Of a DNA stretch of 64,000 bases, positions 611 through 54,396 are shown piece by piece. Source of the DNA: an uncultured bacterium (lineage in GTDB: Bacteria > Patescibacteriota > Minisyncoccia > Phycocordibacterales > Phycocordibacteraceae); assembly GCA_947085985.1 (NCBI GenBank), contig CAMTYL010000004.1, positions 61,547-125,546 of the forward strand. Reading direction: 5' to 3'. The notes under the pieces are model-generated. The model saw nothing but the letters and a program-made list of their open reading frames with translations. It ran no database searches and was not told where the DNA came from. Position numbers and translations under genes: made by a program. Within the stretch, counting starts at the first letter, position 1; every line of letters begins with the position of its first letter.

Positions 611-1225
611 GTGCGGCTCGAACAGGGTCGCACACTTTTTTATGCTCTAATAATAAATAATCGTATGCACATCCGAAAAATACTTACCTACGACGTATAT
701 GCCAATACCGTTGGGGCGGCTCGCTACCAGCACGTAGTAAAACTACTCAACCAATCAATTGACCCGGATACACTACTGACCGATTCATTGGACTGTGGCA
801 AACAAGCTGTACTCACTTCGCCTCTAAAGCGAGCTGTGCAGTGCATAAAGAGAGACTCTGCACTATCAATTACGGCTTCACCACAACTTACAGAAATAGC
901 ATTTCCGCTACAGGAATATTGTACGGAGAATGACTTTCTTGAATATGGAAGCGTGGCCGTGAGAAAGGCATTTGTTCAGGCGTTTATAGAAGACAAACTA
1001 TGTGTTCCTCATAAGCAGCTGAAGAAGGAACTGGAAGACATTCTCATATTACGGGGGCAAGCGAAACCGCCACTGTGCATTTCGCATACTTTCAGAATGA
1101 AGTTACTCGAGATATACGCAAGTATAGGGGACGACTTATTCCGCAACCCATCTTTACTAGGTACATATGTCAGCCCGGAAAAGCACCTATACGAATTTGG
1201 CGAGATAATTGAAGTTCGAATATAG
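611..1225 (+). CDS. hypothetical protein
   Basis: 204-aa ORF from GTG 611 (first ATG at 665); AT-richer than neighbours; no motif recognised. Confidence 0.35.
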   Translation: MRLEQGRTLFYALIINNRMHIRKILTYDVYANTVGAARYQHVVKLLNQSIDPDTLLTDSLDCGKQAVLTSPLKRAVQCIKRDSALSITASPQLTEIAFPLQEYCTENDFLEYGSVAVRKAFVQAFIEDKLCVPHKQLKKELEDILILRGQAKPPLCISHTFRMKLLEIYASIGDDLFRNPSLLGTYVSPEKHLYEFGEIIEVRI

Positions 1226-1913: not shown

Positions 1914-3179
1914 CTAATTGCGTCCGAGGATAGAACTAAGGGTATTCTTTCGCACAATGATGCGCGCAGGAATGTAGCCCGCGAGCAGTGTGACGGATAT
2001 CAGAATTCCGATACGGGTGAACGTCTCCCCGAGAGGGGCCACCAAGATGCCGTCAGAGAACGGGAAATCAATCGGGTTTGCTGCAATCGCCGGAGACAGG
2101 AGTCCGTAGAGAAGCACCAAACCAATTGCAGAACCTGCCACTGCATAGAAGATGGACTGAAATACGTAGGAGAATTCAATAGCTTGCCCACTAATACCGA
2201 TACCCTTCAGGATACCGATAAACTTGCGACGTGTGATGGCATTGATGAAAATCACAATGAATATGGTGATGGCAGCCACCGCAAGACCAAGCGAGCTGAA
2301 CACTGTGCCAAGCAGTGCAAAGGTCGCAATCATATCTTTCAGAAACTTTGGCTGCGCGTCTTCAAAGGTCTGCACTTTTGCCACATTCCCCACTCCATAG
2401 AGAAGCAGGTGGTCGCGCACCACTGCTGGGTCAATACCGTCCTTCACCTTTATCGCAATCTCGTCCACGTTCCCGTCGCTTCGCCCAATAAGGCCGCGCA
2501 TTTGTGAGTCCGACATGAACGCTGAGAGCGATATTTCGTCCACCTTCGTCTTCACAATTCCTTTCACGGTGACTTCTTTAGTAACATCGCCAACACGCAT
2601 GCGAATCTTGGTACCGACACCAACATCTTCAAGGGTGGTAAACGCTGGGGACTCAATGGGCAGGTACTGCTTTAGCAGATAGTGGCCGAGCACCACCTGG
2701 TCGTAGTCGCCCGCTTCAATAAACGAGCCCTCTACCAGGTTGTCACGGATGCTGGTGACCGCGTGCTCGCTACTTGCATCAATACCAACCAACTGTGCAC
2801 CGGCAGTGTTCGGCTTCTCGTCGTCGCGACGAGTCTTGTAGTTGGCTTCAAGGCGCGCGGATTCACGATAGCGCGGCGTGAACGACTCCACCTCTGGCAT
2901 TGCGTCAATAATTGAGAGCACGTTCCCTGTCGTTTCAATGTACTCCTTGTCCGAGAGCGAAGAGACGATAACGTCCGACGTGTACTTCTCGCGGGTGGCG
3001 TCCACTGCGCCTTGGATAAGACCTACCAAAATACCCGATACCACCACGAGGTTTAAGAATGTAAGCACCATCACAAAGATGATGAGCGAGGTGGTCCACG
3101 GATTTGAGCGCCGTAGCTGACGGAGTGCTAAGAAGAGCCCGACCTTCGCATTTAGTGCTGTGTGCGAATGACGAGCCAT
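1914..3179 (-). CDS. ABC transporter permease, FtsX/MacB-type with a large extracytoplasmic domain
   Basis: N-terminal TM helix, ~250-aa periplasmic domain, C-terminal TM bundle; start taken at ATG 3179 (ORF runs to GTG 3212). Confidence 0.8.
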   Translation of the reverse strand: MARHSHTALNAKVGLFLALRQLRRSNPWTTSLIIFVMVLTFLNLVVVSGILVGLIQGAVDATREKYTSDVIVSSLSDKEYIETTGNVLSIIDAMPEVESFTPRYRESARLEANYKTRRDDEKPNTAGAQLVGIDASSEHAVTSIRDNLVEGSFIEAGDYDQVVLGHYLLKQYLPIESPAFTTLEDVGVGTKIRMRVGDVTKEVTVKGIVKTKVDEISLSAFMSDSQMRGLIGRSDGNVDEIAIKVKDGIDPAVVRDHLLLYGVGNVAKVQTFEDAQPKFLKDMIATFALLGTVFSSLGLAVAAITIFIVIFINAITRRKFIGILKGIGISGQAIEFSYVFQSIFYAVAGSAIGLVLLYGLLSPAIAANPIDFPFSDGILVAPLGETFTRIGILISVTLLAGYIPARIIVRKNTLSSILGRN

Positions 3180-8673: not shown

Positions 8674-8740
8674 ATCCAGATTCTACCCCACCCCCTGGTG
8701 CTCTCCCCAGTCTCGCTAAGACGCGGTACACTGTAGGGGT

Positions 8741-9010
8741 ATGAATATCAAGAAACAGCTCACCGTCGCCTGGAGCCTCGTCGTCGTGCTCGGCTTCCTC
8801 CTTATTGTCTCTCTTTTCTTCCTCGCTAACCCTAGGGGACAAAAAGACACAAATATTACCGCGCAGCGCGACCTCGTGCGCGAATACTGCACCAAAACTG
8901 ACCAAGAAAGCAAAGATGCCTGTGCAAAAGAGCTCCAGGACCTAAGCGATATGCTACGGGATTTCAGCACCGACCTTACCAAGGACGCCACCGTCAAGGG
9001 TAGCCTGTAA
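8741..9010 (+). CDS. small membrane-anchored hypothetical protein
   Basis: 89 aa, N-terminal TM helix, strong terminator downstream. Confidence 0.45.
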   Translation: MNIKKQLTVAWSLVVVLGFLLIVSLFFLANPRGQKDTNITAQRDLVREYCTKTDQESKDACAKELQDLSDMLRDFSTDLTKDATVKGSL

Positions 9011-19663: not shown

Positions 19664-19933
19664 TTACCAAGAAGCTTTCTTAACGCCAGGAATCTTTCCC
19701 TCGCGAGCGAGCTCGCGGAACTGGATGCGAGAAAGACCGAATGCGCGCATGTAGCCACGAGGGCGACCAGTGACGACGCAGCGATTCTTCACACGAACAG
19801 GGGAAGAATTCTTTGGCAGCTTCTGTAGACCCTCCCAGTCACCCGCAAGCTTTAAAGCCGCACGCTTTGCAGCGTACTTGAGCGTTAGCTTCGCCTTCTT
19901 GGCGTTGCGAGCGATTTGAGAGGTTTTTGCCAT
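19664..19933 (-). CDS. rpsN: 30S ribosomal protein S14 (long, non-zinc type)
   Basis: [15 protein letters not shown] ... [26 protein letters not shown]. Confidence 0.85.
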
Positions 19934-20074
19934 AAAAAATAGCTCCGGAGAGCCGTTCATGTAATCTATCAGTAAGTATATAGGCTGTCAAATAAGGGAC
20001 GAGCTGATATGACAAATGCCCGGCGCCACAGATGAGAATCTGCAGCACCGGGCCCGTATGCCCAGGAAATGGCT

Positions 20075-20572
20075 CTACAGCAGGCTGAAAATCAGCTTGC
20101 GTTCCGGTTCCCAGACCCGTTGCGGATCGAGGCGCCGCGCATACAGCCACCGAATTCCGCGCTCCTCCGCCACCACCAGGTGATGGGGCTGATCGTTGCC
20201 GTCGAGGACCGGCTCGGTGTAGACCACGCCGGCAAGCTGCGTACCCTTCGGCGCCGCCCACAGGTCAAGAGCGAACGCCAGAGAGAGAGGCTTGGCGCCC
20301 ATCTTCGAAAGCTGGCCGAGGACGGCCGTTTCGCGGACGGGAACACCGTGCTTGAATCCGAGGTGCGCCAGCGTGACCTGGCCAACCAGGCCCTTGTGCT
20401 CGTAGACCGCGAGACAGCCCTTCGTCTCGCTGCTGGCCAAAGTCGCCAGCAACTTGCGGGCGTGCTCGTCCATCTGATGACTCGGGTCAGCGAACGCGAG
20501 GAAGTGGGACACGTGGTCCATGTTGCTTTCCAGCGAGTAACGAACGCGCGGAATATCGAGAATGTCCCCCAT
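20075..20572 (-). CDS. hypothetical protein inserted between rplE and rpsN; GC3-rich, foreign-looking
   Basis: 165 aa, SD AAGGAGG 6 nt before the ATG; ~65% GC against ~53% for flanking r-protein genes; no family recognised. Confidence 0.55.
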   Translation of the reverse strand: MGDILDIPRVRYSLESNMDHVSHFLAFADPSHQMDEHARKLLATLASSETKGCLAVYEHKGLVGQVTLAHLGFKHGVPVRETAVLGQLSKMGAKPLSLAFALDLWAAPKGTQLAGVVYTEPVLDGNDQPHHLVVAEERGIRWLYARRLDPQRVWEPERKLIFSLL

Positions 20573-20650
20573 AGGGCCTCCTTACTGAGCAGAGGTGCGG
20601 AATGCACCAATGAACTCCTCCTCTCTGGATACCACGAAATGCATAAAAGT

Positions 20651-20674
20651 AAAACCCCGGCACTGCCGGGGTTT
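20651..20674. terminator. bidirectional rho-independent terminator directly after rplE
   Basis: AAAA-CCCCGGC-act-GCCGGGG-TTTT. Confidence 0.65.
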
Positions 20675-20693
20675 TACTTGTAAGAAATGCTAC

Positions 20694-21230
20694 TTACGCA
20701 GTCTTAATCGGAAGCCCAAGCATACGAAGGAATGCCTCTGCCTCTTCCTTGGTCTTTGCGGTTGTCACAAAGGTGATAGCAAGACCAAATACGTCCTTCA
20801 AGTCCTCTTCTGAGGTCTCAGGGAAGATGGTGTGGTCCTTGATACCGATGGTGTAGTTGCCCATCTCATCAAACGACCCAGCAGAAAGTCCACGGAAGTC
20901 GCGCGTACGAGGAAGTGCAATGTGAATCAGCTTGTCCACGAAGTGGAACATGCGTGTTGAACGAAGCGTCACCTGGTAACCTACGATTTCACCCTGACGC
21001 ATCTTGAACTGTGCAATTGACTGCTTAGACGCACGCGGCGCAGCCTTCTGGCCCGTAATGCGAGCAAGACGCCCTTCAATAAGAGTCTTTCGGTTCTTGT
21101 CAGCCTTTCCTACTCCCGTAGAAACCACCACCTTTACAAGGCGTGGAGATGAGAACACGTTGGTGTATCCGAAACGCTCCTTAAGCGTATCAAATGCCTT
21201 GCTCTGCTTTTCTTTAGTAATCATTGTCAT
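20694..21230 (-). CDS. rplE: 50S ribosomal protein L5
   Basis: L5 family conservation. Confidence 0.9.
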   Translation of the reverse strand: MTMITKEKQSKAFDTLKERFGYTNVFSSPRLVKVVVSTGVGKADKNRKTLIEGRLARITGQKAAPRASKQSIAQFKMRQGEIVGYQVTLRSTRMFHFVDKLIHIALPRTRDFRGLSAGSFDEMGNYTIGIKDHTIFPETSEEDLKDVFGLAITFVTTAKTKEEAEAFLRMLGLPIKTA

Positions 21231-30020: not shown

Positions 30021-31223
30021 TTAGGCAACGATCTTCGTTACCACACCTGCTCCAACCGTCTTGCCACCCTCACGGATAGCGAAGTGCTGAGACTCCTCAA
30101 GCGCGATAGGCGCAGTGAGCTTTACCTTGAAGGTAACGGTGTCTCCCGGCATAACCATCTCCTTTCCTTCTGGAAGGGTCACCTCACCTGTTACGTCCGT
30201 TGTGCGAACGTAGAACTGAGGCTTGTAACCAGAGAAGAATGGAGTGTGACGTCCTCCCTCGTCCTTACCAAGGATGTATACCTCGGCTTCAAAGTCAGTA
30301 CGAGGAGCAACGGATCCCGGCTTCGCGATAACCTGACCGCGATGCACGTCCTCCTTCTTAGTACCGCGGAGCAAGATTCCTGCGTTGTCTCCAGCCATAC
30401 CTTCGGTGAGCTGCTTGTTGAACATCTCAATACCGGTAATGGTGGTCTTTGCAGTTGGGTGGAGGCCGATGATTTCAACTTCCTCTCCCACCTTGATAAC
30501 ACCGCGCTCGATACGACCAGTGATAACTGTTCCGCGTCCTTCAATTGAGAACACGTCCTCAACAGGCATTAGGAATGGCTTGTCGGTCTCGCGAACTGGG
30601 TCTGGGAAGTATGAGTCCATCGTGTCGACGAGCTCCTTCACCTTAAGTGCCCACTCATCGTTAGCATCAGTTGCCTCAAGTCCCTTAAGACCTGATCCCT
30701 TGATGATAGGAGTAGTAGCACCATCGTAGCCGTTCTTGGTGAGAAGCTCACGCATCTCCTCTTCAACGAGCTCTACCATGTCAGCGTCCTCTACCATGTC
30801 TACCTTGTTGAGGAAGATGATAAGACGAGGCACACCAACGTTCTTTGCAAGAAGAATGTGCTCGCGGGTCTGAGGCATAGCACCGTCAGTTGCGGCAACT
30901 ACGAGTACTGCACCATCCATCTGGGCAGCTCCCGTAATCATGTTCTTGATGTAGTCGGCGTGGCCTGGCGCGTCAATGTGCGCGTAGTGGCGATTTGGTG
31001 ACTCGTACTCTGAGTGGTGAAGGGCGATGGTGATTCCACGAGCCTTTTCCTCAGGTGCGTTGTCGATGTTTTCAATCTTCTCAGCGCGGGCCTTGTAGCC
31101 TGCAGCTGCGTTCAGGTTGAGAACGTTAAGAATACCGGCAGTGAGCGTAGTCTTACCATGGTCCACGTGACCGATGGTTCCTACGTTCATGTGCGGCTTG
31201 CTGCGGTCGAATGCGTCTGCCAT
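30021..31223 (-). CDS. tuf: elongation factor Tu
   Basis: [24 protein letters not shown]. Confidence 0.97.
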
Positions 31224-31497: not shown

Positions 31498-31740
31498 CTA
31501 GCGCGCCAAGGCGAACCGTCGGTGCGATGTGTACCGCTTTGGAGCAACCTCAGCCCGATACGGCTTATTGCCGAGCTCCGGTCCCAGGTACGCAGGAACG
31601 GGAGTCGGCTTTTCCGGTCTGCTACGCCGGGCGCCGTGCCGTAGCGGGTAGCGACCCGGGAACGCCAAGCGCACAAGCGCAAACGGCACAAAAAAGAACA
31701 TGTACAACCGGAATATCCGGTCACTGATAGCTGCAATCAT
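31498..31740 (-). CDS. hypothetical 80-aa membrane-anchored basic protein (could instead be a non-coding GC-rich leader)
   Basis: SD GGGAGGAAG upstream; palindrome GGGGCGGCCAGATGGCCGCCCC downstream. Confidence 0.35.
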   Translation of the reverse strand: MIAAISDRIFRLYMFFFVPFALVRLAFPGRYPLRHGARRSRPEKPTPVPAYLGPELGNKPYRAEVAPKRYTSHRRFALAR

Positions 31741-31769
31741 AGCTTCCTCCCTGCCCAGGCGAGCATACT

Positions 31770-31809
31770 ACCACAAAAATTCATCCCCCGGCCACGCTGT
31801 GGCCGGGGG
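31770..31809 (-). terminator. rho-independent terminator after the 95-aa gene
   Basis: CCCCCGGCCAC-gct-GTGGCCGGGGG followed, on the minus strand, by TGAATTTTTGTGG. Confidence 0.6.
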
Positions 31810-31821
31810 ATACTTGGTGGT

Positions 31822-32109
31822 CTAACGGCAGCCCCACCCGCCGCAGGGGCGTCTGACGCCCCGATTGGGCACCTCGCGAGCTGGAATGGAGCGCCCAAGA
31901 GCGCGAGGCGGCTGCGGAAAGGTCTCCCAGATGGTCTTCTCGCGAATGAGTTCTGCCCGGATGAGCTGCTCCAGCGCGAAGAGTGCCGAATCTGCGCGCG
32001 GAAAGACCATCAGTACGGACCCTTCAGTCGCCACAATCGTGCGACTGAAAATCGGCGATTGGTCGGTATCATCCACGACGATAATGCCAGACGAATTAAC
32101 TGGGCTCAT
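31822..32109 (-). CDS. hypothetical 95-aa protein between fusA and tuf
   Basis: SD GAGGGAGGTG upstream of the ATG; C-terminal CGGWGC. Confidence 0.5.
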   Translation of the reverse strand: MSPVNSSGIIVVDDTDQSPIFSRTIVATEGSVLMVFPRADSALFALEQLIRAELIREKTIWETFPQPPRALGRSIPAREVPNRGVRRPCGGWGCR

Positions 32110-32200: not shown

Positions 32201-34348
<2,148 letters not shown>

Positions 34349-34458: not shown

Positions 34459-35346
34459 CTAGTTCACGTCGCGTGCAACAATCGGGAGCCCGCGCTCGTC
34501 AACGACGTTCTCGTATCGCTCAGTAATCACGCGTCCAGCGTTGCCGCTCGCATGCACTACGTAGTCACGACCCAGACTGATGGCCACGTGCCCCTCCCAG
34601 AACAATAACTGGTCCCTGGTCCAGGAACCGAGTTCTCCGGGCTTAGGCACTTCCGCTTCCTTGCCGAGCGACATTTGCATGTCGGCGTCGCGCGGCACCT
34701 TCCGGCCCAAGGCATGGAACCCTAGCTGGACGAGCGCCGAGCAGTCTAGGCCGAGCGCCGTACTCCTCGCAGCCCAGACATACGGCACACCGAGCATTTT
34801 GTACGCCGCCGTTGCTGGACCAACATAGTCCAACTCCTTCTCTTCAAAGAAGCCCCGATGCAGAGGGAGCAAGGTATCTTCTTTCACCCACCCCACACCA
34901 GGAATCTCCGAGAAGCCATTCTGTAGCCTCGCGACATGCACCTCGGTCCACAGACCAAGGCGCTCGAAGGTCGGAAGGGTATGACTCGGACCCGCGTATA
35001 CGAGCGCGGAGAGGGCCGTCACCCGGTGTGTAAGCACGGGCGCTGGTCGCTCCGACAGGTTGAAGTCCTCCGTGCGCGCAAACCCCACGTAGGAGTCGTG
35101 TTCGCACTGGACCATGACCCAGCTCGAACGGTGCGGATACAACACCGCCTTCTCGTTTAGGTTGAGCATACTGACCCGGGACGAACGTGGGTCGGGTTCC
35201 TCGTGAAGAAAGATTTGTGGCTTCTTAACACGAGCCGCACTGCCTTCTACATAGAACCGGGCATTGATACCAGCAGATCCGCGCAGATGCACGGCCGCCA
35301 GACCATCCCGAAACGGCAGGACACGCTTATCTACAACGTTCTGCAT
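34459..35346 (-). CDS. NlpC/P60 (C40) cell-wall endopeptidase with N-terminal SH3-like domains, inserted between rpsG and fusA
   Basis: catalytic Cys in GLDCSALVQ and His in WEGHVAI; GC3-rich (~63% GC). Confidence 0.75.
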   Translation of the reverse strand: MQNVVDKRVLPFRDGLAAVHLRGSAGINARFYVEGSAARVKKPQIFLHEEPDPRSSRVSMLNLNEKAVLYPHRSSWVMVQCEHDSYVGFARTEDFNLSERPAPVLTHRVTALSALVYAGPSHTLPTFERLGLWTEVHVARLQNGFSEIPGVGWVKEDTLLPLHRGFFEEKELDYVGPATAAYKMLGVPYVWAARSTALGLDCSALVQLGFHALGRKVPRDADMQMSLGKEAEVPKPGELGSWTRDQLLFWEGHVAISLGRDYVVHASGNAGRVITERYENVVDERGLPIVARDVN

Positions 35347-35425
35347 TTCTGTCTCCATCCAATCTGTCCAGGCACGGGTGCCGGAACTCCGGTTGAAGCT
35401 TCAATCCAAGACCCTTAAAAGTCAA

Positions 35426-36069: not shown

Positions 36070-36480
36070 CTAAGCCTTAGGCTTCTTAGCACCGTACTTA
36101 GAACGGCCACGGCGACGCTTATCAATACCTGCGGTATCAAGACGACCACGCACGATGGTGTACTGCACGCCAATGTCCTTCACGCGACCACCACGAAGGG
36201 TGACCACTGAGTGCTCCTGGAGGTTGTGACCCTCACCTGGGATGTAGGCAGTAACCTCCATACCGTTGGTAAGGCGCACACGAGCAATCTTACGAATAGC
36301 CGAGTTTGGCTTGCGAGGAGTCTTGGTCGTTACCTTCACACATACACCGCGCTTGAAAGGAGACGCGTAAAAGGTTGGACGGTTCTTAAGAGTGTTAAAA
36401 CCACGTCCAAGTGCCACCACCTTCGTCTTACGAGCGGTGGTCTTGCGCGCCTTCTTTGTGAGCTGCTGAATTGTTGCCAT
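36070..36480 (-). CDS. rpsL: 30S ribosomal protein S12
   Basis: [13 protein letters not shown] ... S12 core; start taken at ATG 36480. Confidence 0.95.
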
Positions 36481-36584
36481 GTGTAGATAAAAACCCCCGC
36501 TTGGGAGCTCCATGGACTATATACGGACCAGTAAATAAATGCAACCTACTTTCGCAGCAGAAACAGCGCACGACGGCCAGATAC

Positions 36585-36642: not shown

Positions 36643-37140
36643 ATGGCCTTTGATAGCAGTTCTTCTGAAAATACGACCCTCGACGCTTCGGCGGCCGAAA
36701 CGACTGGCCGTTCCCCCAACCCGGTGGACCTGCACGTCGGCGGACGCATCCGCATGCGCCGCCGGCTGCTCGGCGTCAGCCAGGAACTCCTCGCCGACGA
36801 CCTCGGCCTGACCTTCCAGCAGGTGCAGAAGTACGAGCGCGGCGCAAACCGCGTCTCGGCGTCCAAGCTGTACGAAGTCGCCAAGAGCCTGCAGACCTCG
36901 ATCGGCTACTTCTTCGACGGCCTCAACGACCCGGCGACGGCCAAAGCCGACGGCGTAACCGACAGCGGCGCCGAGCTGACCATCCACGACTTCCTGATGA
37001 CTTCGGAAGGACTGGAGCTGGCCCAGCTCTTCCCCAAAATCAAGAAGGGGGGCGTTCGCCGGCGGATCCTCGACCTGGCTCGCGTCATGGTCGAGGATGA
37101 AGAAGTCGCTGAAGACGACGAAGATCGCGCCGCCCCCTAG
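36643..37140 (+). CDS. XRE-family helix-turn-helix transcriptional regulator with acidic C-terminal tail; GC3-rich, foreign-looking
   Basis: HTH_3 block GRIRMRRRLLGVSQELLADDLGLTFQQVQKYERGANRVSASKLYEVA; ~67% GC. Confidence 0.75.
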   Translation: MAFDSSSSENTTLDASAAETTGRSPNPVDLHVGGRIRMRRRLLGVSQELLADDLGLTFQQVQKYERGANRVSASKLYEVAKSLQTSIGYFFDGLNDPATAKADGVTDSGAELTIHDFLMTSEGLELAQLFPKIKKGGVRRRILDLARVMVEDEEVAEDDEDRAAP

Positions 37141-53838: not shown

Positions 53839-54396
53839 TTACTCGCAGCAGGGGGCAGTGATCACCAGCGGCGAGACCGTCGTGACCTTGGACGGCGGCG
53901 CCTGCGTGAACCTGCCGGCGCGCGCGTCCATGATGTCGCCCGGATGGAGCGGAATGTTCAGCTCCACCGTCTTCTGATAGCGGGCGAGGTGACGGGCGTG
54001 CTGGTACGTCACCAGGAAGCTCCGGCCGCAAAGCCCCTTCGGGAGTTGCGGTACGTCGGCCTTACAGGACTCCGTCGCGTAGACGGGCAGGTCGACACGT
54101 TCGGCCGCCCTGACGGCGATCCGGAGCTTTGCCACCGGGTCTTTGGTCGCGGTGACGTAGTTCACCACCGCGTCGTCCTGCTTGGCCGTGAATGCCGCCG
54201 GCAGCTGGTTGATCTGCCATTTCTGGTAGATGCCCCACCCCATCACGACCAGAATGATGGCCACGATGGTGAAGCCGGCAGCAATGACGGTGGGCACGAA
54301 GTCAAAGCGGTCAGGGTCACCACTGATACTGTCCTCGTACTCCGTCGCCGGAGTTATGGGATCGGTGCAACTGCTACAAGTGGTGGTGTCGCTCAT
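53839..54396 (-). CDS. hypothetical membrane-anchored protein, GC3-rich
   Basis: 185 aa, one TM helix, Cys pairs at both termini; terminator hairpin downstream. Confidence 0.45.
   Translation of the reverse strand: MSDTTTCSSCTDPITPATEYEDSISGDPDRFDFVPTVIAAGFTIVAIILVVMGWGIYQKWQINQLPAAFTAKQDDAVVNYVTATKDPVAKLRIAVRAAERVDLPVYATESCKADVPQLPKGLCGRSFLVTYQHARHLARYQKTVELNIPLHPGDIMDARAGRFTQAPPSKVTTVSPLVITAPCCE

Follow-up and report, generated by a model that had tools for sequence, protein, structure and literature searches.

An orphan gene lies between rplE and rpsN

In a 64,000-nucleotide (nt) stretch of contig CAMTYL010000004.1 from an uncultured bacterium (hereafter the window), the ribosomal protein (r-protein) genes rplE and rpsN are separated by a small gene, which we call X, encoding a protein of 165 residues (Table 1). 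A preliminary description of this DNA had reported this open reading frame (ORF), its perfect Shine–Dalgarno (SD) sequence, and a GC content of about 65%, higher than that of its neighbors. Our measurements agree with it. The motif AAGGAGG is found at 20583..20577 with the ATG 4 nt downstream, and the GC content of X is 0.635, with values of 0.70/0.40/0.80 at the three codon positions (GC1/GC2/GC3, hence the order GC3>GC1>GC2). The five neighboring r-protein genes have a GC content of 0.50–0.54 and a GC3 of 0.55–0.58, and the window as a whole a GC content of 0.527. X lies ∼3.5 standard deviations from the mean GC3 of the 85 non-overlapping ORFs of the window (0.556 ± 0.069), and it prefers the codons CTG/GCG/CCG where r-protein genes prefer CTT/GCA/CCA. 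Since the identical X protein is encoded on five contigs that were assembled independently from five sequencing runs, each time in the L5–S14 context, an assembly chimera is excluded.

X is a true orphan. It has no match in Pfam, NCBIfam, PADLOC, or PHROGs (the last two searched to an E value of 1), the profile of its family returns nothing from PDB sequences up to an E value of 10, tblastn finds no X-like sequence in viral contigs, phage genomes, or plasmids, and there is no paralog within the 64-kb window. The few candidates that surfaced were rejected. DUF1609, at an E value of 0.028 in the profile-library search with X and the ORF antisense to it, is noise, and so is everything that permissive Pfam scans returned for all family members (Str_synth at 0.014 and PanZ at 0.1). 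A GNAT acyl-CoA N-acyltransferase, an idea entertained in the preliminary description, is supported neither by profiles nor by fold. The statement in the same description that X could not be placed in a family stands, with empty profile libraries and ∼8 relatives in all databases.

Table 1. Coordinates of the features at the rplE–rpsN locus and of other genes of the window that are discussed in the text
Feature	Position	Strand	Remarks
rplE (L5)	20694..21230	-	Pfam Ribosomal_L5 and L5_C; last gene of the upstream r-protein unit, upstream border of the slot
Predicted terminator after rplE	20644..20682	bidirectional	AAAACCCCGGCAGUGCCGGGGUUUUACUUUU; dG -26.9 kcal/mol, z -5.8 versus shuffles
X leader	20573..20643	-	Hairpin, SD, and possible promoter
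X	20075..20572	-	Orphan gene, 165 aa (MGDILDIPRV...), between rplE and rpsN
Antisense ORF	20069..20683	+	204 aa, opposite X
GC-rich hairpin directly 3' of X	20018..20053	-	16 bp; dG -35 kcal/mol, z -4.4; weak U-tract
rpsN promoter	19963..19991	-	TTGACA-17-TAGATT, near-consensus; downstream border of the slot
rpsN 5' leader	19934..19962	-	Conserved hairpin GGCUCUCCGGAGCU (19941..19954), then U-run, before ATG
rpsN (S14)	19664..19933	-	89 aa from MAKTSQ; Pfam Ribosomal_S14; first gene of the downstream unit
tuf	30021..31223		
fusA–tuf spacer	31498..32107	-	GC 0.63; ORFs of 95 aa (32107..31822) and 80 aa (31740..31498)
fusA	32201..34348		
NlpC/P60 + SH3 protein gene	34459..35358	-	299 aa; GC 0.59, GC3 0.69; between rpsG and fusA, str operon
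rpsL	36070..36513		
XRE/HTH_3 regulator gene	36643..37140	+	165 aa; second GC-rich island, GC 0.64, GC3 0.82; Pfam E 1.6e-11; beside rpsL
185-aa ORF	53839..54396	-	One hydrophobic segment; GC3 0.84; no Pfam match; between a pilB-like ATPase gene and nusA

X is conserved at the same site in a small Saccharibacteria clade

We looked for relatives of X in 5.8 billion protein clusters with a word-indexed search, in 1.84 billion representatives with an index-free profile search, and with a second profile search. The first search returned four X proteins of 164–165 residues (100, 80, 53, and 54% identity). The profile search contributed the distant member P0006 (31% identity) and a fragment, as well as a spurious repeat protein, P0007 (1,653 residues, E value of 9e-6), in which five short stretches align to a Calx-like repeat and which we rejected as a repeat-inflated chance match. 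The second profile search added P0008, annotated as "hypothetical protein, Patescibacteria." The family thus numbers ∼8 members, none of which was found outside the rplE–rpsN locus in the clusters and representatives searched, and all the members with readable flanks are located between L5 and S14. At least six further Saccharibacteria lineages have an ortholog at this site (31–80% identity), including all the close relatives that were sampled (rplE at least 89% identical). Two of the X-bearing metagenome-assembled genomes (MAGs) are labeled as uncultured Candidatus Saccharibacteria, and one of these two comes from a study of wastewater and river water (SRP286056; PMC9405806).

The X frame is unbroken in seven lineages, with lengths of 163–165 residues. 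Pairwise Nei–Gojobori estimates of the ratio of nonsynonymous to synonymous divergence (dN/dS) are 0.20–0.40 for X versus 0.01–0.14 for the flanking r-protein genes, with dS of 0.4–1.3 between X orthologs. Divergence is fast, with X identity falling to 31% where rplE is still 91% identical. In loci L010 and L011, rplE is 97–98% identical to that of the window. These findings largely establish that X is a real, fast-evolving, and lineage-restricted gene of a small Candidatus Saccharibacteria (TM7) clade.

The preliminary description had left room for the ORF of 204 residues on the opposite strand to be the one expressed, an option that does not survive the comparison of loci. This ORF exceeds X in length in both the window and L010, the only two loci where its frame is open across X, and it is cut by stops in five of the seven orthologous loci (L008, L011, L009, L006, and L012), in all of which the X frame is intact. 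Moreover, it traverses the rplE terminator, finds nothing beyond noise in Pfam, NCBIfam, PADLOC, or PHROGs, and faces an X frame under purifying selection. Long antisense ORFs are expected within GC-rich coding DNA, and this one is almost certainly not a gene.

Conserved elements are predicted to insulate X on both sides

The element that follows rplE has a 15-bp stem within a 19-nt inverted repeat (AAAACCCCGGCAGUGCCGGGGUUUU plus U-tract). Since an A-tract borders it at one end and a U-tract (UUUUACUUUU) at the other, termination is predicted in both directions. It is kept in all relatives, with compensatory changes in the stem. By its hairpin, U-tract, stability, and conservation, this is a predicted Rho-independent terminator, which agrees with the bidirectional terminator that had been proposed directly after rplE in the preliminary description.

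Downstream of it, the X leader contains a possible weak extended -10 promoter (TTTACT-16-TGGTATCCA) that shares sequence with the tail of the terminator. A consensus promoter scan finds no promoter for X. There is also a hairpin (GGTGC-ATTCC-GCACC) at 20594..20608, upstream of the SD at 20577..20583. When leaders are aligned, a GTGGTA motif and the SD are conserved, and the hairpin pairing survives sequence changes (GGTGT/ACACC in L006 and GGGTGCAC/GTGCACCC in L012), with a leader stability that is ordinary (z of 0.14). On the other side of the gene, the GC-rich hairpin keeps its position across orthologous loci, with covariation in its stem, and might work either as a terminator or as a stabilizer of the mRNA 3' end. 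The rpsN promoter comes next. Neither this hairpin nor this promoter had been mentioned in the preliminary description. Its 32-nt pattern, in which three positions are degenerate, is found exactly in 13 metagenome contigs, and it is also present in L026–L032. Because of this arrangement—a strong predicted terminator upstream, a hairpin downstream, and a separate promoter for rpsN—X is insulated on both sides. The guaranteed high-expression context that the preliminary description had attributed to X does not hold, since these same elements separate it from the r-protein units on either side.

The region upstream of rpsN has features of its own. The promoter (TTGACAGCCTATATACTTACTGATAGATTAC), the leader hairpin, and the U-run (19934..19991, minus strand) are near base-for-base conserved in L013–L032, where rplE is only 72–88% identical. 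Since a scan of the window with Rfam at gathering thresholds yields only one tRNA (63063), the hairpins and the rpsN leader lie outside described RNA families. The promoter and leader could represent a clade-specific autoregulatory r-protein leader, with S8 or S14 as possible regulators. In three loci, the leader hairpin is separated from the start of rpsN by an extra segment of ∼90 nt (L011 ∼8740..8830, L009 ∼860..940, and L027 ∼3010..3095), which reads GGCAAGCGAGTGA...GGGGAGG..CCTTCCCC...GAGCGAGCG..., forms its own hairpin, and is absent from the window.

The rplE–rpsN gap holds different genes in other lineages

We sampled relatives in two ways, retrieving 13 contigs by the rpsN promoter pattern and 9 contigs by rplE similarity. 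The 13 promoter-pattern contigs come from groundwater, marine, and other metagenomes. Where their flanks are readable, rplE is 77–87% identical to that of the window, and the spacing between rplE and the promoter is 410–740 bp. A same-strand ORF is found in each of these gaps except that of L017 (411 bp, no convincing ORF), and none is X-like by tblastn. In the nine rplE-sampled loci (rplE 72–88% identical), the genes following L5 have no Pfam match. They encode 145 residues in L026/L027, 167 and 166 residues in L028/L029, 321 and 304 residues in L030/L031, 85 + 184 + 186 residues in L032, 143 residues in L033, and 343 residues in L034, where a 793-residue gene with a weak CARDB match comes next. 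Overall, the gap spans 0.4–2 kb and, in every informative relative but L017, contains at least one small same-strand gene, with cargo of 85–343 residues and up to three genes per gap.

BLASTP sorts this cargo into X, lipoprotein family B (nine loci), family C with two transmembrane (TM) segments, family D, and several singletons. Family B is the commonest occupant in other lineages (L013, L015, L018, L021, L022, L025, L028, L029, and L032). Its members are predicted lipoproteins of 117–186 residues with a lipobox, two conserved Cys, and the motifs ANxTDLLAFQ and GCxWALVV, and they have no Pfam match. Profiles of X and family B are unrelated, with an hhalign probability of 0.2%. The frame around the cargo is conserved, in ∼20 of the more distant relatives too, and consists of the rplE terminator, the post-cargo hairpin, the promoter TTTGACAGC...TGATAGATTAC, the leader hairpin GGCTCTCCGGAGC with its T-run, and the rpsN ATG; the exception is L034, where rpsN was not seen within the locus. 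At least five unrelated cargo families, in addition to the singletons, are enclosed by the same flanks in ∼25 loci, as is found at hotspots of horizontal gene transfer (HGT). The rplE–rpsN gap therefore looks like a conserved variable slot for accessory genes in this Saccharibacteria lineage, in which the ancestral spc operon is split at rplE|rpsN by the predicted terminator and the rpsN promoter. The accessory status that had been suggested for X in the preliminary description is borne out by this comparison since distant relatives hold other genes at the same spot. We found no description of such a slot in the literature on Saccharibacteria r-protein operons, and it appears not to have been described before.

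Two further observations concern the content of the gap. L006 has a second GC-rich (0.62) gene without Pfam match, L006_Y (2682..3170, plus strand, 162 residues), between X and the rpsN promoter. Its N terminus, MVDTLDLKKL, recalls the MGDILDIPRV of X, with no significant homology. In L026 (3583..3960) and L027 (2686..3095), ∼380–410 bp without a called gene separate the slot gene from the rpsN promoter. This stretch is conserved between the two and may be either what remains of a second, decayed cargo gene or an RNA.

A different view of this diversity is that all the gap genes are orthologs of one fast-evolving resident gene that diverged past recognition, in which case X would have been inherited vertically and would be GC-rich for a local reason. 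The very fast divergence of X is compatible with this, as is the fact that most occupants have ∼105–185 residues and lie on the same strand, and there is a weak collinear resemblance of X to L014c (z of 4.3) and L006_Y (z of 2.85). Nevertheless, family B remains recognizable across a wider span (rplE 74–87% identical) than separates X from families B, C, and D, its profile is unrelated to that of X, and gap occupants differ not only in size and number but also in architecture (lipoprotein, two-TM, or soluble). In addition, the excess of GC-losing changes reported below means that the composition of X is not at equilibrium, as expected of an import and not of a resident gene. We therefore consider a single resident gene unlikely.

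The content of the gap also bears on the idea that X might be a factor acting on the ribosome or in translation, or else an r-protein peculiar to this lineage, with co-regulation as the reason for its place in the spc cluster. While its clade-wide synteny between rplE and rpsN and its strong SD would suit such a role, the upstream terminator and the separate rpsN promoter set X apart from the two r-protein units, its dN/dS is ∼10 times that of r-protein genes, and its codon usage differs. It is neither basic nor RNA-binding-like (pI of 6.75), the same position in relatives is occupied by lipoproteins and membrane proteins, and a family of only ∼8 sequences in all databases is far from broadly conserved. 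This makes a ribosomal function very unlikely. Because X is insulated, has codons unlike those of r-protein genes, and has lipoproteins and membrane proteins as counterparts in relatives, its role is probably strain specific, in interactions with a host, phage, or competitor.

Composition suggests that X is an old import

All X orthologs are GC-rich (GC of 0.60–0.64, GC3 of 0.68–0.84), while their flanks are not (GC of ∼0.51–0.54, GC3 of ∼0.5–0.57). At compositional equilibrium, changes from G or C to A or T (S>W) and the reverse changes (W>S) are equal in number. When third-position changes were polarized with outgroups, we counted 48 S>W to 8 W>S in X and 82 to 56 in the flanks (Fisher P = 3.6e-4), where the 48 to 8 is supportive rather than exact because parsimony polarization overstates S>W in skewed sequence. 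This excess indicates that X is losing GC, as expected for an import from a GC-richer genome. Moreover, since X orthologs share their site, their GC-richness, and a dS of 0.4–1.3, entry of the gene would predate the split of these lineages. This fits an old foreign gene that is still ameliorating. Of the preliminary description of X as a candidate for HGT or an accessory gene, the foreign composition and accessory nature are retained, but a recent or strain-level event is not, in view of the orthologs in close relatives. Homologs at the same position in all relatives, which that description had counted against an import, exist in close relatives, GC-rich alike, whereas distant relatives have other genes.

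Recent, strain-specific HGT from a GC-rich source, for example a host actinobacterium, which was the earlier reading, would explain the composition of X (GC of 0.635 and GC3 of 0.80 versus 0.527 and 0.56 in the window), and cultivated Saccharibacteria do live on GC-rich Actinobacteria (PMC10633639). However, it is hard to reconcile with the shared position of the orthologs in six or more other lineages, between which dS is 0.4–1.3, and the 1.84 billion representatives, together with plasmids, phages, and viral contigs, yielded no X homolog from outside Saccharibacteria. The borders of X show no target-site duplication, inverted repeat (terminator aside), integrase, or tRNA. A recent transfer of this kind is highly improbable. 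Transport of X as cargo of a mobile element (insertion sequence, transposon, integron cassette, prophage, or island) was likewise rejected, as there are no flanking repeats, no mobility genes, and no viral, phage, or plasmid homologs.

GC-rich genomes exist among the sister lineages that have the same rpsN promoter. In five of them (L013, L014, L018, L020, and L024), rplE and rpsN have a GC content of 0.58–0.66 and a GC3 of 0.70–0.88, and the GC3 of r-protein genes is 0.82–0.88 in the first four, a composition that agrees with that of X (GC of 0.60–0.64, GC3 of ∼0.8). Compared with a GC of 0.53 in the window, this indicates that genome GC varies widely within the group. The slot gene of L014 gives the best global alignment of any non-member with the X family (z of 4.3, with 0 of 300 shuffles as high), followed by L006_Y (z of 2.85), resemblances that we take as a hint only.

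Divergence between X alleles is uneven along the gene. Between the window and L010, codons 1–110 show a dN of 0.043 and a dS of 0.36, and codons 111–165 a dN of 0.32 and a dS of 0.52, while the pattern is reversed between L010 and L011. The protein P0009 differs from that of the window (P0001) only in residues 10–36 and at four C-terminal positions (153, 163–164). Judged from these patterns, X alleles are mosaic.

X has a putative lectin-like fold and may be a binding protein

The X protein (18.4 kDa, pI of 6.75) is soluble, lacking both TM segments and a signal peptide (maximum hydropathy of 0.95). An AlphaFold2 model from four sequences had a mean confidence (pLDDT) of only 49, whereas adding P0006, P0008, and P0005, for seven sequences, gave a pLDDT of 82 and a predicted template-modeling score (pTM) of 0.80. 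This model suggests an alpha/beta fold like that of C-type lectins and formylglycine-generating enzymes (FGE). Foldseek comparison of the model with PDB and BFVD gave nothing significant, and none of seven family members matches Pfam FGE-sulfatase (PF03781) or Lectin_C at E values up to 10. The family has no invariant Cys or His, Cys53 and His32/His37 not being kept in P0006. We rejected X as a formylglycine-generating catalyst, there being no conserved Cys pair or metal ligands.

Variable proteins of diversity-generating retroelements (DGR) and FGE-type enzymes share the C-type-lectin/FGE-like fold, which raises the question of whether X might be one or the other. Yet no DGR template repeat is present on either strand of the 64 kb, where a search for 45-nt repeats with mismatches confined to A returned only self-matches and blastn with a word size of 7 returned no repeat. 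No family member matches Pfam FGE-sulfatase, no Cys or His is invariant, and X has 165 residues versus ∼250–280 for FGE domains. Either identity is therefore extremely unlikely. With no invariant Cys or His, no superfamily profile match, and no DGR repeat, X is best read as a non-enzymatic binder. In the pair formed by the window and L010, dN/dS (omega) is 0.62 in the C-terminal third (codons 111–165) versus 0.12. X might be a binding module, not an enzyme, that is built on a lectin-like scaffold and in which the C-terminal third evolves fastest, a tentative reading that has roughly one chance in three of being right. A small, soluble orphan with mosaic alleles and a fast C-terminal third could also be an immunity, antitoxin, or anti-defense protein that binds and thereby neutralizes a toxin or a factor of the host or a phage, which we regard as rather unlikely.

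Other GC-rich genes in the window

X is not the only compositional outlier. A second GC-rich island next to rpsL encodes an XRE/HTH_3 regulator, for which tblastn against plasmids finds matches in Asticcacaulis (57%), Phenylobacterium (52%), and many Rhizobium, the best being from Caulobacterales/Rhizobiales. This gene looks like a cross-phylum transfer. The GC-rich spacer between fusA and tuf contains two SD-preceded ORFs, both ending in a GC-rich hairpin, with a terminator after fusA; this layout is the same as at X, and there is no Rfam match. The NlpC/P60 gene of the str operon is another non-ribosomal, GC-elevated insertion in a translation cluster. Finally, the 185-residue ORF between the pilB-like ATPase gene and nusA brings the strong GC3 outliers of the window to three.

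A model for the history of X and what it would mean

Taken together, we propose that X is an insulated and lineage-restricted accessory gene, an old import in an exchangeable slot, and that it encodes a binding protein. We give this reading as a whole a probability of about 0.55. X DNA would have come from a GC-richer genome and entered the ancestor of the X-bearing clade, after which it would have been inherited, with some mosaicism of alleles, while slowly losing GC. The most economical donor would be a GC-rich sister Saccharibacteria lineage with the same flanks, and entry would have been by natural transformation, with rplE and the region of the rpsN promoter as the sites of homologous recombination. 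Natural competence, with integration of DNA through homologous recombination, has been demonstrated in Saccharibacteria (PMC10633639), and most gene transfers detected in Patescibacteria come from other Patescibacteria (PMC12455944). Given this, the GC-rich sister lineages, and the mosaic alleles, slot exchange between Saccharibacteria would be the simplest account. X would function as its own unit made of leader, strong SD, ORF, and hairpin. Its product would be a ligand-binding module in which the C-terminal third is a fast-changing specificity surface, which is the weakest step of the model.

Several points weigh against this proposal. A lectin-like domain that lacks a signal peptide would stay in the cytoplasm, an unusual location for recognizing a host. 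The promoter of X itself is weak and was missed by the consensus scan. Parsimony polarization in a GC-skewed gene exaggerates S>W, region-specific selection instead of recombination could be behind the mosaic pattern, and the similarity of X to the L014 slot gene and L006_Y is not significant by hhalign or BLASTP. We found no donor sequence for X, and because the XRE regulator gene looks alphaproteobacterial, donors outside Saccharibacteria are also possible.

A bolder version, possible but on balance doubtful, is that the gap is a dedicated and always-occupied exchange slot, where the terminator and the rpsN promoter serve as docking flanks, single fast-evolving genes (for surface lipoproteins, membrane proteins, or the lectin-like X) are swapped between lineages by transformation and recombination, and the occupant helps to set the host or phage specificity of the epibiont. 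Saccharibacteria and other bacteria of the candidate phyla radiation (CPR) live as obligate epibionts, the host-range determinants of which are largely unknown. The slot lies between two universal marker genes, differs between close lineages, and mostly encodes lipoproteins, membrane proteins, or a lectin-like domain; being easy to locate and variable, it may offer a cheap set of candidate interaction genes. It may also be a natural marker for typing strains in metagenomes. Furthermore, the r-protein cluster used in CPR phylogenomics and binning is not inviolate, and a GC-deviant gene inside it could be misread as contamination or chimerism. If the exchange slot is true, it would be a one-gene specificity locus inside the most conserved gene array of the genome; if it is merely a tolerated dumping site, it would only be a tidy example of HGT and amelioration.

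Comparison with known systems

Proteins with a C-type-lectin/FGE fold that we compared with X include the C-terminal domains of EgtB and SenA, PvdO, SUMF2, the DGR proteins TvpA and Mtd, and the Bdellovibrio fiber tip Bd2740. Unlike these, X has no PF03781 or lectin match, is shorter than FGE, and has no catalytic Cys pair, clear EPN/WND calcium-binding motifs, signal peptide, or DGR.

At the level of the gene, X resembles the Patescibacteria HGT genes of Gios et al. 2025 (PMC12455944) in being a singly transferred gene in a streamlined CPR genome, the donors there being mostly other Patescibacteria; the abstract of that study describes no fixed slot in the r-protein cluster. Similarly, the gap shares with core-flanked HGT hotspots, or "islets," its variable cargo, conserved flanks, foreign composition, lack of mobility genes, and mosaic alleles. 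It differs from them in that there is typically one gene of ∼0.5 kb here, with flanks consisting of r-protein genes plus a conserved terminator and promoter, and cargo that is almost all orphans.

A further parallel is offered by the insertions into the conserved r-protein cluster of Gammaproteobacteria and Bacilli, which occur mainly between operons (PMC8046335). Events between or within operons of the cluster in that study include tusDCB, bfd-bfr, and ilv-leu, as well as nrdHEF between rplL and rsmC in the rpoBC operon. As in those cases, a few non-ribosomal genes sit within a conserved array at the boundary of a transcription unit, which in that study is the first step in uncoupling neighboring operons. 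However, none of those events is at rplE–rpsN, while the break here falls within what was ancestrally the spc operon and comes with a conserved terminator and promoter of its own. In addition, the gap is occupied in nearly all of the ∼25 lineages sampled here, and since the occupants are differing orphan genes, repeated replacement rather than a single insertion is suggested.

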